This document shows positions 9,037 through 16,054 of a stretch of DNA of 64,000 bases, one piece after another. Position numbers and translations under genes: made by a program. This DNA comes from Escherichia coli (GTDB lineage: Bacteria; Pseudomonadota; Gammaproteobacteria; Enterobacterales; Enterobacteriaceae). Where the stretch lies: the NCBI RefSeq assembly GCF_003334255.1, contig NZ_QOWU01000008.1. One strand, given 5' to 3'. Every line of letters begins with the position of its first letter. Position 1 is the stretch's first letter. The notes below the pieces were generated by a model that searched no databases, was not told the origin of the DNA, and saw nothing but the letters and a program-made list of their open reading frames with translations.

Positions 9037-11859
9037 TTACAGCATCGGCTTAAGGAAGCGTGCCGTGTGTGATGCTTCGCACTCCGCGACGGTTTCTGGC
9101 GTACCGGAGACGAGGATCTCGCCGCCACCACTGCCGCCTTCTGGTCCCAGGTCGACAATCCAGTCAGCGGTTTTGATCACGTCGAGATTGTGCTCAATCA
9201 CCACAATGGTGTTGCCCTGATCGCGCAGTTTATGCAGTACGTCGAGCAGTTGCTGAATATCGGCGAAGTGCAGACCGGTGGTCGGCTCGTCGAGAATATA
9301 CAGCGTCTGCCCGGTGCCGCGTTTTGACAGTTCACGCGCCAGCTTCACGCGCTGGGCTTCACCGCCTGAAAGGGTGGTTGCGGACTGCCCCAGTCGAATG
9401 TACGTCAGGCCAACGTCCATCAACGTTTGCAGCTTACGCGCCAGTGCAGGTACGGCATCAAAGAACTCACGCGCCTCTTCGATGGTCATATCCAGCACTT
9501 CGTGGATGGTTTTGCCTTTGTACTTAATCTCCAGCGTTTCACGGTTATAGCGTTTACCTTTGCACTGGTCGCACGGCACGTAGATATCCGGCAGGAAGTG
9601 CATCTCCACTTTGATCACGCCATCGCCCTGACAGGCCTCGCAGCGTCCGCCACGAACGTTAAAGCTGAAACGTCCCGGCGTATAGCCGCGCGCACGGGAT
9701 TCCGGTACGCCCGCAAACAGTTCGCGCACAGGCGTAAACACGCCGGTATAGGTCGCCGGGTTAGAACGTGGAGTACGACCAATTGGGCTTTGGTCGATAT
9801 CGATCACTTTATCGAAATGCTCCAGCCCCTGAATATCGCGATACGGTGCTGGTTCGGCGATGGTCGCCCCATTCAACTGGCGTTGGGCAATCGGGAACAG
9901 TGTGTCGTTAATCAGCGTCGATTTACCGGAACCTGAAACCCCGGTGATGCAGGTAAACAGACCCACCGGCAGCGTCAGCGTCACGTCCTTCAGGTTGTTG
10001 CCGCGTGCGCCTGTCAGCTTCAGCACTTTTTCCGGATTCGCCGGAACGCGTTTCTTCGGCACTTCAATCTTGCGTTTGCCGCTCATGTACTGCCCGGTCA
10101 ACGACTCCGGCACCGCCATAATCGCTTCCAGCGGACCTTCTGCGACCACTTCACCGCCGTGAACACCTGCGCCCGGGCCAATGTCGATCACATGGTCAGC
10201 GGCGCGAATTGCGTCTTCGTCGTGCTCCACCACAATCACGGTATTACCGAGATCGCGCAGATGGATAAGCGTACCCAACAGGCGCTCGTTATCACGCTGG
10301 TGCAGGCCGATAGACGGCTCGTCCAGCACGTACATAACGCCAACCAGGCCCGCACCAATCTGGCTCGCCAGACGGATACGCTGTGCTTCACCGCCAGAAA
10401 GCGTTTCTGCCGAGCGGGAAAGCGTCAGGTAATTCAGGCCGACGTTAACGAGGAATTTCAGACGATCGCCGATCTCTTTAAGGATTTTTTCTGCAATCTT
10501 CGCCCGCTGACCTGCGAGTTTGAGATTGTTGAAGAATTCCATCGCATGACCAATGCTCATGTCGGAGATAGCAGGCAGCGGCGTATTCTCGACATACACG
10601 TGGCGCGCTTCCCGACGCAGACGCGTCCCTTCGCAGCTGGCGCACGGACGATTACTGATAAACTTGGCTAATTCTTCGCGTACCGCGCTGGATTCCGTCT
10701 CTTTATAGCGGCGCTCCATATTATGCAGCACGCCTTCGAACGGATGACGACGAATGGAGGTATCGCCACGATCGTTCATGTATTTGAATTCAATGTTTTC
10801 TTTGCCAGAACCGTACAACACCACTTTATGCACGTTCGCGCTCAGGCTGCCCCACGGCGCTTCGACGTCGAACTTATAGTGATCTGCCAGCGATTTCAGC
10901 ATCTGGAAATAATAGAAGTTGCGGCGATCCCAGCCACGGATCGCACCACCAGCCAGCGACAGTTCCGGATTCTGGATCACTCGATCAGGATCGAAATATT
11001 GCTGTACGCCAAGGCCGTCGCAGGTCGGGCAGGCCCCCGCCGGGTTGTTAAACGAAAACAGTCGCGGCTCCAGTTCACGCATACTGTAGCCGCAAATTGG
11101 GCAGGCGAAGTTGGCGGAGAACAGCAGCTCTTCCGCTTTCGGGTCGTCCATATCCGCCACTACCGCGGTACCACCGGAAAGCTCCAGCGCGGTTTCAAAT
11201 GACTCGGCAAGACGTTGGGTAAGATCGTCACGCACCTTGAAGCGATCAACCACCACTTCAATGGTATGTTTCTTTTGCAGTTCCAGTTTTGGCGGATCGG
11301 AAAGATCGCAGACTTCGCCATCAATACGAGCACGGATGTAGCCCTGGCTTGCCAGGTTCTCCAGCGTTTTGGTGTGTTCGCCTTTGCGCTCTTTAATGAT
11401 TGGCGCGAGTAGCATCAGACGCTTGCCTTCCGGCTGCGACAGCACGTTATCCACCATCTGGCTGACGGTTTGCGCCGCCAGCGGGACGTCGTGGTCCGGA
11501 CAGCGCGGCTCGCCAACGCGGGCGAATAACAAACGCAAATAGTCGTGGATTTCGGTGATTGTCCCCACCGTAGAACGCGGGTTATGAGACGTCGATTTCT
11601 GCTCAATTGAGATGGCAGGAGAAAGCCCCTCAATATGATCGACGTCCGGCTTTTCCATCAGTGACAGAAACTGCCGCGCGTAGGCGGAAAGGGATTCAAC
11701 GTAACGGCGCTGCCCTTCGGCATATAAGGTGTCGAAAGCGAGCGAGGATTTGCCAGAACCCGAAAGCCCGGTCACGACAATGAGCTTGTCGCGGGGGATA
11801 ACGAGGTTGATGTTTTTGAGATTATGGGTGCGGGCGCCCCGAACTTCGATCTTATCCAT
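9037..11859 (-). CDS. uvrA: excinuclease ABC subunit A, 940 aa
   Basis: Two ABC ATPase modules ([10 protein letters not shown] and [10 protein letters not shown] Walker A motifs) and zinc-finger cysteine clusters. Confidence 0.97.
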
Positions 11860-12112: not shown

Positions 12113-12649
12113 ATGGCCAGCAGAGGCGTAAACAAGGTTATTCTCGTTGGTAATCTGGGTCAGGACCCGGAAGTACGCTACATGCCAAATGGTGGCGCAG
12201 TTGCCAACATTACGCTGGCTACTTCCGAATCCTGGCGTGATAAAGCGACCGGCGAGATGAAAGAACAGACTGAATGGCACCGCGTTGTGCTGTTCGGCAA
12301 ACTGGCAGAAGTGGCGAGCGAATATCTGCGTAAAGGTTCTCAGGTTTATATCGAAGGTCAGCTGCGTACCCGTAAATGGACCGATCAATCCGGTCAGGAT
12401 CGCTACACCACAGAAGTCGTGGTGAACGTTGGCGGCACCATGCAGATGCTGGGTGGTCGTCAGGGTGGTGGCGCTCCGGCAGGTGGCAATATCGGTGGTG
12501 GTCAGCCGCAGGGCGGTTGGGGTCAGCCTCAGCAGCCGCAGGGTGGCAATCAGTTCAGCGGCGGCGCGCAGTCTCGCCCGCAGCAGTCCGCTCCGGCAGC
12601 GCCGTCTAACGAGCCGCCGATGGACTTTGATGATGACATTCCGTTCTGA
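12113..12649 (+). CDS. ssb: single-stranded DNA-binding protein, 178 aa
   Basis: ORF 12050..12649 trimmed to [16 protein letters not shown]; OB fold, glycine/glutamine-rich tail and acidic C-terminus DFDDDIPF. Confidence 0.95.
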
Positions 12650-12717
12650 TTTGTCATTAAAACAATAGGTTATATTGTTTTAAGGTGGATGATTAAAGCA
12701 TCTGCCAGCCATAAAAA

Positions 12718-12742
12718 AGAAGCCTCCGTTATGGAGGCTTCT
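12718..12742. terminator. bidirectional terminator between convergent ssb and yjcB
   Basis: AGAAGCCTCCgttatGGAGGCTTCT hairpin with A-run upstream and T-rich sequence downstream. Confidence 0.75.
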
Positions 12743-12747
12743 ACGTA

Positions 12748-13029
12748 TCAGGTCAAAATCATTGGCCATTGTGGCGGTGTCTGATTCATCTCTTCTATCA
12801 TCACCGACTCGATGTTGTGCCAGATAGCGGTGATGTCCGCCATTGTGATGCCAAGCAACCCCATTGCGAACCAACAGGCGGAAACAACGCCCAGACCGCT
12901 GCTGATCACCGCAAGCCCGACATAATCAGACCGACGAAAACGGATGTTGAGTGTGCTGGCCAGAAACATCATTACGGCACTAAGAAGTTGCCAGCGAAGA
13001 AGAACCACGCCAGTGGTGAGGGTAGCCAT
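12748..13029 (-). CDS. yjcB: small membrane protein YjcB (93 aa)
   Basis: ORF 12748..13128 trimmed to MATLTTGVVLL...; two hydrophobic helices. Confidence 0.6.
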   Translation of the reverse strand: MATLTTGVVLLRWQLLSAVMMFLASTLNIRFRRSDYVGLAVISSGLGVVSACWFAMGLLGITMADITAIWHNIESVMIEEMNQTPPQWPMILT

Positions 13030-13458
13030 CAAACAATTCCTCTGAAAAGAGCCGATGCCCTGGACAGCGCGGCGTTGTTCACGGGAGGCGTGGTACACTC
13101 TGGCTATCGCGGGGCTTGCAGAACACAAAAATGAAACACTCTGTTTGTTTCATTAATTTTGTGAACTATATCACAATTGATTGTTTGTTAGCCATATTAG
13201 GCCGTGACTTTTATTGCTGTACAGATTATGTGGTTTTTCAGTGGCATTAAGGGCATATCTTCCCGCCGCCTCTGCATTCCTGTAGGAAATTAATTTTGAA
13301 TATCAATGAATTATTTTCATCCAGGTGACGATTAGAAAGGTATCAATTTCAAATCAGGCAAAAGTGCTATTTATACCGTAAGATTTATCTAAAGACGTCG
13401 GTACCCAGGGTTTTCACCTTGCAATGGCCGGGTATAAACAGGCAGGAAATTGATAGCA

Positions 13459-15045
13459 ATGAGTCATCGTGCACGACACCAATTACTGGCGTTGCCGGGC
13501 ATTATCTTTTTAGTTCTCTTTCCCATCATTCTTTCGCTATGGATTGCCTTCCTTTGGGCAAAATCAGAAGTGAATAATCAGCTCCGAACCTTTGCTCAAC
13601 TGGCACTGGATAAATCCGAGCTGGTCATTCGCCAGGCAGATTTAGTGAGCGATGCAGCTGAACGCTATCAGGGGCAAGTTTGCACTCCAGCCCATCAAAA
13701 GCGAATGTTGAATATTATTCGTGGCTATCTTTATATTAATGAATTGATCTATGCCCGTGATAACCATTTTTTATGCTCATCGCTGATAGCGCCTGTAAAC
13801 GGCTATACGATTGCACCGGCCGATTATAAGCGTGAACCTAACGTTTCTATCTATTATTACCGCGATACGCCTTTTTTCTCTGGCTATAAAATGACCTATA
13901 TGCAGCGGGGAAATTATGTGGCGGTTATCAACCCTCTCTTCTGGAGTGAAGTGATGTCTGATGACCCGACATTGCAATGGGGTGTGTATGATACGGTGAC
14001 GAAAACCTTTTTCTCGTTAAGCAAAGAGGCCTCGGCAGCAACGTTTTCTCCGCTGATTCATTTGAAGGATTTAACCGTACAAAGAAATGGCTATTTATAT
14101 GCGACAGTTTATTCGACAAAACGCCCAATTGCAGCCATTGTTGCGACTTCATATCAACGTCTTATAACCCATTTTTATAATCATCTTATTTTTGCGTTGC
14201 CCGCCGGTATTTTGGGGAGTCTTGTTCTGCTATTACTCTGGCTACGTATTCGACAAAACTATTTATCTCCCAAACGTAAATTGCAACGCGCCCTCGAAAA
14301 ACATCAACTTTGTCTTTATTACCAGCCAATAATCGATATCAAAACAGAAAAATGTATCGGCGCTGAAGCGTTGTTACGTTGGCCTGGTGAGCAGGGGCAA
14401 ATAATGAATCCGGCAGAGTTTATTCCGCTGGCAGAAAAGGAGGGGATGATAGAACAGATAACTGATTATGTTATTGATAATGTCTTCCGCGATCTGGGCG
14501 ATTACCTGGCAACACATGCAGATCGCTATGTTTCTATTAACCTGTCGGCCTCCGATTTTCATACGTCACGGTTGATAGCGCGAATCAATCAGAAAACAGA
14601 GCAATACGCGGTGCGTCCGCAGCAAATTAAATTTGAAGTGACTGAGCATGCATTTCTTGATGTTGACAAAATGACGCCGATTATTCTGGCTTTCCGCCAG
14701 GCAGGTTACGAAGTGGCAATTGATGATTTTGGTATTGGCTACTCTAACTTGCATAACCTTAAATCATTGAATGTCGATATTTTGAAAATCGACAAATCGT
14801 TTGTTGAAACGCTGACCACCCACAAAACCAGTCATTTGATTGCGGAACACATCATCGAGCTGGCGCACAGCCTGGGGTTAAAAACGATCGCTGAAGGCGT
14901 CGAAACTGAGGAGCAGGTTAACTGGCTGCGCAAACGCGGCGTGCGCTATTGCCAGGGATGGTTCTTTGCGAAGGCGATGCCGCCGCAGGTGTTTATGCAA
15001 TGGATGGAGCAATTACCCGCGCGGGAGTTAACGCGCGGGCAATAA
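13459..15045 (+). CDS. pdeC: c-di-GMP phosphodiesterase with periplasmic sensor and EAL domain (528 aa)
   Basis: N-terminal TM helix, second TM helix, then an EAL domain (LYYQPIIDI ... EALLRW ... [10 protein letters not shown]). Confidence 0.85.
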
Positions 15046-15047
15046 AA

Positions 15048-15371
15048 TTACAGGCGGTGGCGATAATCGCTGGGAGTGCGATCAAACTGCCGACGGAAAA
15101 CGCGGGAGAAGGTCTGCTGCGAGACATAACCCAGGTCCATTGCGATATCAAAAATCGGACGCTCGGTGGTGCGCAACTCAACGGCGGCCAGTAACAGGCG
15201 GCGTTGGCGAATGTAATCGCCAAGCGTCTGATGCGTCACCGTGCGGAACATTCGTTGCAAGTACCACTTTGAATAGCCTGATTTTTTTGCGACTACATCA
15301 ATGTTAAGCGGCTGGTCAATATGCTCGTCAATCCATGCGATAAGATCCTGAATAATTTTCTGATGGGACAT
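15048..15371 (-). CDS. soxS: AraC-family superoxide-response activator SoxS (107 aa)
   Basis: Translation MSHQKIIQDLIAWIDEHIDQPLNIDVVAKKSGYSKWYLQRMFR with two HTH motifs. Confidence 0.95.
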   Translation of the reverse strand: MSHQKIIQDLIAWIDEHIDQPLNIDVVAKKSGYSKWYLQRMFRTVTHQTLGDYIRQRRLLLAAVELRTTERPIFDIAMDLGYVSQQTFSRVFRRQFDRTPSDYRHRL

Positions 15372-15456: not shown

Positions 15457-15921
15457 ATGGAAAAGAAATTACCCCGCATTAAAGCGCTGCTAACCCCCGG
15501 CGAAGTGGCGAAACGCAGCGGTGTGGCGGTATCGGCGCTGCATTTCTATGAAAGTAAAGGGTTGATTACCAGTATCCGTAACAGCGGCAATCAGCGGCGA
15601 TATAAACGTGATGTGTTGCGATATGTTGCAATTATCAAAATTGCTCAGCGTATTGGCATTCCGCTGGCGACCATTGGTGAAGCGTTTGGCGTGTTGCCCG
15701 AAGGGCATACGTTAAGTGCGAAAGAGTGGAAACAGCTTTCGTCCCAATGGCGAGAAGAGTTGGATCGGCGCATTCATACCTTAGTGGCGCTGCGTGACGA
15801 ACTGGACGGATGTATTGGTTGTGGCTGCCTTTCGCGCAGTGATTGCCCGTTGCGTAACCCGGGCGACCGCTTAGGAGAAGAAGGTACCGGCGCACGCTTG
15901 CTGGAAGATGAACAAAACTAA
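15457..15921 (+). CDS. soxR: MerR-family redox sensor SoxR with [2Fe-2S] cluster (154 aa)
   Basis: MerR-type HTH N-terminus and C-terminal [12 protein letters not shown] cysteine cluster. Confidence 0.95.
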
Positions 15922-16054
15922 AGCGCCACAAGGGCGCTTTAGTTTGTTTTCCGGTCTTTGTCTTTCTCTCTATCCCGCTGGTACACAGGAGGGTTTCCCC
16001 CGACGTCAACACACCTCATTCGAGCACGTGGTGGAGGTTCCGGTTGGTGTTGAT
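15915..16054 (-). ncRNA. ryjA: candidate small RNA RyjA/SraL, convergent with soxR
   Basis: Placed from recollection that K-12 carries this sRNA just 3' of soxR on the opposite strand, sharing the terminator hairpin; not verifiable from sequence alone. Confidence 0.35.
15921..15950. terminator. hairpin at the soxR 3' end (AAAGCGCCacaaGGGCGCTTT), likely bidirectional
   Basis: Inverted repeat overlapping the soxR stop, followed by a T-rich tract. Confidence 0.7.

Follow-up and report, generated by a model that had tools for sequence, protein, structure and literature searches.

The AT-rich stretch upstream of pdeC in Escherichia coli is probably the core of a divergent yjcB/pdeC control region

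We consider it likely that the AT-rich sequence in front of pdeC (13130–13458) is the core of an ordinary divergent control region of 429 bp shared by yjcB and pdeC. It would consist of two independent promoter modules acting at the DNA level and a weakly constrained AT-rich spacer. The components of this region are already known from published genome-wide studies, namely the yjcB start site, RpoD and H-NS SELEX, MarA ChIP-seq, SoxS ChIP-exo, and the crp and rpoS transcriptomes. The present analysis adds a coherent map, in which a CRP palindrome lies on the yjcB -10, the yjcB half can be separated from the pdeC half, and the pdeC promoter is placed about 90–100 nt from the pdeC ATG. As this is a core E. 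coli K-12 intergenic region, the importance of the map beyond correct annotation is small.

Gene order and extent of the gap

The analyzed stretch of DNA (64 kb, referred to as the window) contains a locus that resembles E. coli K-12, with the gene order uvrA–ssb–yjcB–pdeC–soxS–soxR. Published coordinates were converted according to window position = NC_000913.3 position - 4,262,012. A query of 911 nt across the gap found a match in each of the 5,426 complete E. coli genomes, and many of these matches had 100% identity. The genes are:

9037–11859, minus strand: uvrA (annotation and ORF list)
to 12649, plus strand: ssb (annotation and ORF list)
12748–13029, minus strand: yjcB, 93 aa (RefSeq annotation)
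13459–15045, plus strand: pdeC, ATG at 13459 (annotation)
15048–15371, minus strand: soxS (annotation and ORF list)
15457–15921, plus strand: soxR (annotation and ORF list)

A previous sequence-only reading had noted an AT-rich stretch of about 330 bp before pdeC that lacks a credible ORF. Both observations hold. The GC content of 13130–13458 is 36.8%, compared with 52.9% for the whole window, which puts it among the 4% of 329-nt windows with the lowest GC, and its right edge lies exactly at the pdeC ATG (13459). The window has about eight further segments that are equally AT-rich. The longest frames are 44 aa with a TTG start (13116–13250), 29 aa with a GTG start (13204–13293), and 26 aa on the minus strand (13277–13197).

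The left edge of the stretch had to be revised. It had been drawn next to the TTG at 13128, where an extended version of yjcB (126 aa) would begin. RefSeq starts yjcB at the conserved ATG at 13029, and the orthologues align from residue 1 (34 loci). Moreover, the sequence 13030–13128 contains indels of 1 and 2 nt between species, and we therefore regard the 126-aa TTG extension as non-coding. With the yjcB start at 13029, the true gap is 429 bp long (13030–13458). The description of the stretch as simply upstream of pdeC also needs correction. As yjcB and pdeC are on opposite strands and diverge from each other, the gap must hold the promoters of both. A long gap between the two genes is kept across genera, with 429–447 bp in Escherichia and 541–812 bp in Citrobacter, Salmonella, Enterobacter, and Silvania.

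Transcription start and leader of yjcB

The features on the yjcB side of the gap that concern its transcript and core promoter are:

13030–13157, minus strand: yjcB 5'UTR, 128 nt (published start site to ATG 13029)
13130–13156, no strand assigned: inverted repeat AATGAAAC-N-GTTTCATT, predicted 5'-terminal hairpin of the yjcB mRNA (conservation and minimum-energy fold)
13165–13191, minus strand: yjcB core promoter with -10 TATAGT (13170–13165), 15-bp spacer, and -35 CTAACA (13191–13186) (RpoD genomic SELEX prediction)

A re-analysis of dRNA-seq data (PMC12987492, Table 1) reports a primary start site of yjcB at 4275169 on the minus strand, which corresponds to window position 13157. In the same study, it belongs to the ten primary start sites with the strongest enrichment across all antibiotic treatments. 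The AT-rich interval therefore begins with 28 nt of yjcB 5'UTR. A CTAACA/TATAGT promoter for yjcB had been predicted from RpoD genomic SELEX (PMC3946193), and its hexamers are correctly spaced for the mapped start, which is located eight bases downstream of TATAGT. Thus, the gap contains for yjcB a mapped start together with a fitting -10 and -35, as expected of a divergent promoter. In the -35 region (13176–13194), Escherichia species are identical at 16 of 19 columns. The core promoter is weak, with a spacer of only 15 bp and a -35 that matches at 4 of 6 positions.

The yjcB leader contains the conserved blocks GATAGCCAG and CGCGCTGTCC, which are able to pair in the consensus fold of 18 yjcB leaders with weak covariation. 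In the inverted repeat at the 5' end of the transcript, the arms are invariant and the loop is variable in five Escherichia species, the AATGAAAC arm is invariant across 20 species, and the 9-bp stem is present in the minimum-energy fold. In many species outside Escherichia, GTAAC is an uncompensated mismatch in this repeat. The folding energy of the whole yjcB leader was no better than that of shuffled sequences (z = -0.34).

A CRP palindrome over the yjcB -10

The most conspicuous element of the gap is a palindrome that overlies the yjcB -10:

13160–13175, no strand assigned: perfect CRP consensus palindrome TGTGAACTATATCACA (consensus match; putative CRP operator for repression of yjcB)

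This sequence has the form TGTGA-N6-TCACA, the CRP consensus, and its center is at -10.5 relative to the yjcB start site. It is the sole match in the 64 kb window, where 0.06 would be expected by chance. Five Escherichia species agree at all 16 of its columns. The box was found in 20 of 20 aligned species, with differences confined to the last base or to one spacer base, and it is also present in 11 further loci that carry an inserted gene (see below). It lies at a constant distance of about 130 nt from the yjcB ATG (about 63 nt in Enterobacter, where part of the leader is missing), and its distance from the pdeC ATG varies from 291 to 682 bp.

Expression data agree with an effect of CRP on yjcB. 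In a 2026 transcriptome study (RNA-seq and qPCR), yjcB was up in a delta-crp strain at both pH 7.5 and pH 5.5, with 474 TPM in delta-crp versus 155 at pH 5.5. The same study does not include pdeC in the delta-crp lists, and has it only in the lists of genes down in delta-rpoS, at both pH values. An older phylogenetic scan, PhyloScan, placed yjcB among its top predicted CRP sites.

Based on the position of the palindrome, we infer that CRP represses yjcB. cAMP-CRP bound to the perfect palindrome would occlude the -10 and the start site, and this placement would explain the de-repression of yjcB in delta-crp. CRP acts as a repressor by occlusion at cyaA P2 and at crp itself. The arrangement also resembles divergent promoters overlapped by CRP sites, with genes placed back to back, a TGTGA-N6-TCACA box centered at -10.5, and one gene up in delta-crp while the other is not listed as changed. 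It differs in that the palindrome is perfect, which is unusual among natural CRP sites, and in that the operator is a predicted one.

We note that the same TGTGA-N6-TCACA box has been called the "Fnr box" of yjcC in a Klebsiella paper.

MarA and SoxS binding between yjcB and pdeC

MarA/SoxS binding to the region is documented. A MarA ChIP-seq peak was found in the yjcB<>yjcC interval of ETEC, and yjcB was also named as a SoxS ChIP-exo target (PMC5684230, Table 1). The exact position of the box is uncertain. One candidate is available from the published motif analysis:

13203–13217, minus strand: predicted MarA/SoxS/Rob box GCAATAAAAGTCACG, position uncertain (MEME on MarA ChIP-seq, PMC5684230)

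This predicted box matches the consensus at just 8 of 15 positions, is located 66 bp from the center of the MarA ChIP peak, and lies in a region that is 42% invariant in Escherichia. Searches of the yjcB–pdeC spacer with an IUPAC pattern and with a 15-mer consensus did not identify a better marbox; the best matches to the 15-mer consensus gcactaattgctaaa reached 8–9 of 15 positions. The degenerate consensus with three mismatches was not discriminating, with 101 matches in the window versus 124 expected from shuffles.

RNA polymerase starts at 13157 on the minus strand from the weak CTAACA-15-TATAGT promoter, and MarA, SoxS, or Rob would bind just upstream of the yjcB -35 and activate yjcB under antibiotic or oxidative stress. 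The yjcB promoter shares with mar/sox/rob promoters the MarA ChIP-seq peak, the SoxS ChIP-exo assignment, the antibiotic-induced start, and a weak core. Activator-dependent promoters of this regulon are typically weak-cored, like that of yjcB with its 15-bp spacer and 4/6 -35. However, the best marbox match reaches just 8–9 of 15 positions, and the predicted box is poorly conserved even within Escherichia.

A conserved promoter block and a predicted short leader for pdeC

On the pdeC side of the gap, the following features were identified:

13337–13393, plus strand: conserved pdeC promoter block with extended -10 TGC-TATTTA (13365–13373) and C at -13 (conservation; start predicted near 13380)
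13411–13438, plus strand: alternative proximal promoter TTTTCA-16-TATAAA, leader of about 14 nt (PMC3946193 prediction)
13380–13458, plus strand: predicted pdeC 5'UTR of about 79 nt with Shine-Dalgarno AGGAAA at 13444–13449 (derived from the -10 position)

The block 13337–13393 is highly conserved, with 54 of 57 columns (95%) invariant in Escherichia. An extended -10 with a C at -13 is a hallmark of σS promoters (consensus TGTGCTATACT). In agreement with this type of promoter, pdeC has been described as σS-controlled in E. coli, and it is rpoS-dependent in Klebsiella too.

The -10 has homologues outside Escherichia, in the form of TTGCTAATAT in Citrobacter and Salmonella and of TTGCTAACTT in Enterobacter and Silvania, so that the extended -10 reads TG-C-TAATAT or TG-C-TAACTT in these genera. 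In a promoter scan, the block was the top plus-strand promoter in C. amalonaticus, S. diarizonae, and C. youngae, and it ranked third and fourth among the candidates in Enterobacter and Silvania. The S. diarizonae version (TTGACC-16-TAATAT, with TG and C at -13) scored 14.1. In all of these, the -10 ends 88–91 nt from the ATG. The E. coli hexamer TATTTA is a poor -10 and was outside the top seven plus-strand candidates in the scan. Hence, the E. coli promoter resembles σS extended -10 promoters in its TG-C-TATTTA element and in the rpoS dependence of pdeC, but departs from them in lacking the conserved final T (-7), and its start is a predicted one.

We predict that pdeC transcription starts near 13380 and that the leader is about 80 nt long. 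This leader length is a prediction, because the start was deduced from the position of the -10. A σS-type extended -10 TGC-TATTTA would thus direct transcription of pdeC from about 13380, with translation from an ordinary Shine-Dalgarno sequence. No pdeC start site turned up in the TSSpredator-Web supplement, in the Kim 2012 supplements (queried under the gene name and the old coordinates), or in a part of the Ettwiller 2016 GTF, and literature searches on promoter names and the pdeC TSS did not return one either.

The alternative promoter TTTTCA-16-TATAAA, which is closer to the gene, is conserved within Escherichia only, and its -10 also lacks the final T. In a natural deletion in strain STE15, it is the only upstream sequence that is retained.

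Outside Escherichia, an upstream ATG (ATGCAACGTAAT...) was considered as the start of a conserved leader peptide. It was rejected because Escherichia lacks an ATG at this place, a stop follows after four codons in one Citrobacter, and the frame relative to pdeC varies by genus.

The middle of the gap

The sequence between the conserved parts contains two features:

13231–13246, no strand assigned: conserved block GTGGTTTTTCAGTGGC (candidate transcription factor site, or -35-like TTTTCA of a possible distal plus-strand promoter)
13247–13336, no strand assigned: variable AT-rich spacer, probably H-NS-bound (alignment; H-NS flag in PMC3946193)

In the GTGGTTTTTCAGTGGC block, 15 of 16 columns are invariant in Escherichia, and its TGTGGTT recurs in other genera. 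The stretch 13247–13336 (GC about 37%) is the least conserved part of the gap, with 32% of columns invariant and 25 gapped columns within Escherichia. Here, K-12 lacks about 20 bp that are found in E. albertii and about 13 bp that are found in the three other Escherichia lineages. In strain T16R, an IS1 has inserted at 13249–13257 and left a target duplication of 9 bp, indicating that the spacer tolerates insertion. A role for H-NS in this part is suggested by a SELEX study in which H-NS was flagged for the yjcB–pdeC spacer (PMC3946193).

Separability of the yjcB and pdeC halves

Natural rearrangements show that the two halves of the region can be pulled apart. In 11 loci of Enterobacter, Lelliottia, Leclercia, and Pluralibacter, yjcB and pdeC are about 2.2 kb apart and are separated by a gene for a 468-aa PAS-GGDEF protein (diguanylate cyclase). 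In these loci, the CRP box stays with yjcB, 60–125 nt from its ATG, and the distance between the TTGCTAAnnT/GATTCATGCAAC block and the pdeC ATG is kept at 96–101 nt. It follows from these loci that the halves are separable and that the unit attached to pdeC is short. The expression data divide in the same way, as only yjcB responds to delta-crp and only pdeC to delta-rpoS.

As part of the overall model, it is therefore likely that one module (13130 to about 13246) serves yjcB and the other (13337–13458) serves pdeC. The divergent yjcB promoter and its 5'UTR account for nearly half of the conserved sequence.

A possible distal promoter for pdeC

The best surviving alternative is that pdeC has a distal promoter within the yjcB-side module, in addition to the proximal one or in its place. 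The transcript would then have a leader of about 190–290 nt that crosses the AT-rich spacer, and pdeC would be linked to SoxS/MarA. Two candidates came from the promoter scan:

start near 13166, plus strand: distal candidate ATGAAA-17-TAATTT (promoter scan)
start near 13268, plus strand: distal candidate TTTTCA-15-TATCTT, downstream of the marbox region (promoter scan)

An argument for such a promoter comes from Klebsiella pneumoniae CG43, where a yjcC-lacZ fusion without the distal 140 bp or so, which contain the TGTGA-N6-TCACA box, had the lowest activity and lost its induction by paraquat. This result suggests that, in K. pneumoniae, the distal module may contribute to pdeC expression. In addition, yjcC mRNA is lower in soxRS and rpoS mutants of Klebsiella. 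This evidence was obtained with plasmid fusions in log phase, however, and in E. coli the SoxS ChIP-exo target is named as yjcB and pdeC is not listed as changed in delta-crp.

Sequence comparisons can be read both ways. Among the plus-strand matches, ATGAAA-17-TAATTT has the highest score in E. coli and is found again in other species, E. whittamii has TTTTCA-17-TAAAAT with a score of 11.1, plus-strand promoter-like matches occur near 13154–13159 and 13235–13261, and the conserved GTGGTTTTTCAGTGGC block could supply a -35-like element. On the other hand, promoter-like matches are as frequent here as in shuffles: a stricter tool found 2 between 12600 and 13600 versus 1.8 expected. Moreover, the CRP box and its neighbors keep their distance to yjcB and not to pdeC, and follow yjcB when a gene is inserted, and a long leader would have to traverse the least conserved, indel-rich stretch of the gap. 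On balance, we regard a distal pdeC promoter as unlikely.

The same judgment applies to the wider proposal that MarA/SoxS between the genes switches on both the membrane protein YjcB and pdeC, the latter via a distal promoter beside the proximal σS one; this is improbable to the same degree. Both ideas would have consequences if true. A distal SoxS-responsive promoter would tie the sensing of oxidative stress to c-di-GMP turnover, which is of moderate interest for biofilms. A shared activator site, at which the Klebsiella deletion hints, would mean that YjcB and a c-di-GMP phosphodiesterase are co-induced in oxidative and antibiotic stress.

Possible RNA-level control and hidden genes

The sequence-only reading had seen the stretch as a long pdeC leader of about 330 nt and had suggested complex regulation, possibly with sRNA targets. 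The complex regulation stands insofar as CRP, MarA/SoxS, H-NS, and σS are all linked to the region. The long leader with control at the RNA level is not supported: the CRP box tracks yjcB, only 32% of the middle is invariant, and the only conserved element beside pdeC is the promoter-like block about 90–100 nt from the ATG. The comparison with long leaders that act as sRNA hubs (csgD, and dgcM targeted by OmrA/B) is limited to the presence of a c-di-GMP enzyme gene and a long non-coding upstream gap. Here, the analysis found no sign of a long transcript, no structure signal, no conservation over the supposed leader, and no reported sRNA partner.

A further explanation is that the pdeC leader controls translation, either as a structured cis-regulatory RNA or by serving as an sRNA docking site; an example would be GAUUUAU/AUGAGUC pairing. 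The suggestion of a conserved leader structure was followed up by conservation and covariation analysis. RNAalifold on 16 pdeC leaders gave a single helix of 7 bp as the only consensus structure, in which GATTYAT at the predicted 5' end pairs with ATGARTC at the start codon. In K-12, the arms are GATTTAT (13382–13388) and ATGAGTC (13459–13465). Across the 16 species, 98% of cells pair, and the C to U and A to G changes keep the pairing via G-U. The GATTCATGCAAC block beside the predicted start is strongly conserved as well. However, none of the 7 pairs changes on both sides in the 16 species, and shuffles matched these scores in every one of 500 trials, so that sequence conservation by itself accounts for the pairing. 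Of the two arms, one lies in coding sequence, and the other could simply be the region transcribed first from the promoter.

The folding data do not point to a structured leader either. The consensus fold has an energy of -3 kcal/mol, and both the short leader (13380–13480, z = 0.13) and the long putative leader (13130–13480, 351 nt, z = -0.57) fold like shuffled sequences. Rfam had no match in the spacer at gathering thresholds, and with permissive E-values over 12400–13900 the sole match in the interval was rli59, with 17 bits (gathering score 100) and E = 9.8. A literature search on sRNA or Hfq and pdeC found no paper linking the pdeC mRNA to an sRNA. We therefore consider a regulatory RNA in the pdeC leader very improbable.

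Hardly any weight can be given to the idea that the gap conceals a gene for a small protein or for a separate sRNA. The short ORFs listed above span variable, indel-bearing parts of the alignment even within Escherichia, and either their start codons are weak or a Shine-Dalgarno sequence at the proper distance is missing. Rfam gave no match in the spacer, 13030–13458 contains no terminator-like site, and natural isolates carry an IS1 insertion or a deletion of most of the region.

A simple promoter and terminator scan, from which the absence of terminator-like sites in 13030–13458 was taken, found promoter-like sites no more often than by chance. The reading of the gap as a divergent control region draws on the gene layout, the mapped yjcB start, the conservation of the CRP box, the delta-crp and delta-rpoS effects, MarA/SoxS binding, and the separation of the two halves in the loci with an inserted gene. 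In a survey of overlapping transcription, yjcB–pdeC is not among the 16 divergent overlaps, and pdeC and soxS, on the other side of pdeC, form a convergent excludon.

The yjcB 5'UTR and its terminal inverted repeat

In the part of the yjcB-pdeC spacer that is transcribed as the leader of yjcB, two elements were distinguished.

13030-13129, minus strand: blocks GATAGCCAG ... CGCGCTGTCC in the yjcB 5'UTR, strongly conserved
13130-13156, extreme 5' end of the yjcB mRNA: inverted repeat AATGAAAC...GTTTCATT

In the consensus fold, the conserved blocks GATAGCCAG and CGCGCTGTCC form base pairs around a CACG/CGTG hairpin. There is limited covariation, at one pair, which changes from GC to AU in 4 sequences. 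Several Enterobacter species have lost the whole element.

The inverted repeat is followed by a U-run in the yjcB mRNA. Within Escherichia, its loop is variable and its arms are invariant, and many non-Escherichia genera carry an uncompensated GTAAC mismatch. The repeat may act as an RNA hairpin or be bound by a protein, or it may supply the -35 element of a plus-strand promoter.

Natural variants of the spacer within Escherichia

In two E. coli strains, the region is altered by an insertion or a deletion. In strain T16R (locus L002), an IS1 element has inserted into the variable part of the spacer, at a position equivalent to window 13249-13257, and is flanked by a 9-bp target duplication, AAGGGCATA. 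The annotation of T16R gives pdeC as a pseudogene interrupted by an internal stop codon; beyond yjcB, ssb is replaced by an AbiGi-family gene. Strain STE15 (locus L043) has a natural deletion equivalent to window positions of about 12740-13405, which removes yjcB, fuses the ssb terminator to pdeC-proximal sequence, and leaves only the last 53 bp of the spacer (13406-13458) before pdeC. In this strain pdeC is still an intact open reading frame.

Smaller differences between lineages were found at window 13253/13254. At this point E. albertii has about 20 bp, and the three other Escherichia lineages have about 13 bp, that are missing from K-12 and from the remaining E. coli strains in the comparison.

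The region upstream of pdeC in other genera

Outside Escherichia, a conserved block with an upstream ATG precedes pdeC, and many genomes of Enterobacter, Lelliottia, Leclercia and Pluralibacter have an additional gene between yjcB and pdeC (L-numbers denote homologous loci, in their own coordinates).

About 80 nt before the pdeC ATG: GATTCATGCAAC with upstream ATG (L009, L011, L012, L013, L015 and others)
L015:1257-2663, pdeC strand: PAS-GGDEF gene (also L014, L017, L020, L021, L025, L026, L032, L036-L038)

The ATG in GATTCATGCAAC opens a short upstream reading frame, the fate of which differs between taxa. In C. amalonaticus it terminates at a TGA that overlaps the pdeC ATG, whereas in Citrobacter sp. 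FP75 a stop follows after 4 codons. In Enterobacter it is fused in frame with pdeC, giving an ORF of 552 aa. An upstream ATG or ORF about 80 nt before pdeC is absent in Escherichia.

The inserted gene encodes a protein of 468 aa that contains the motif RVGGEEF and is likely a diguanylate cyclase. Its position and orientation therefore place a c-di-GMP maker immediately upstream of a c-di-GMP breaker.

Two contigs, L030 and L039, are filed as Flavobacterium paronense CECT 8460 and Thiomicrorhabdus cannonii HH3. Their PdeC proteins are 100% and 98% identical, respectively, to the E. coli K-12 protein. YjcB is likewise encoded on L030, at 100% identity. These contigs are almost certainly E. coli contamination of the respective assemblies.

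Neighboring junctions and other RNAs

12718-12742, minus strand: strong hairpin between ssb and yjcB, called as a terminator, with a T-run after yjcB
15045-15048: convergent junction of pdeC and soxS, stop codons just 2 bp apart
15914-16054, minus strand: Hfq-binding sRNA SraL (RyjA), Rfam, 153 bits

Published work describes the ssb-yjcB gap as a hotspot for integration, which in some strains holds an 18-kb Detocs/dGTPase defence island. The pdeC-soxS pair has been named in the literature as a convergent excludon, and soxS induction could therefore interfere with pdeC transcripts. SraL overlaps the 3' end of soxR (15457-15921) and continues downstream of it. Elsewhere in the window, Rfam identified several REP-type naRNA4 repeats and the fdhF SECIS element.
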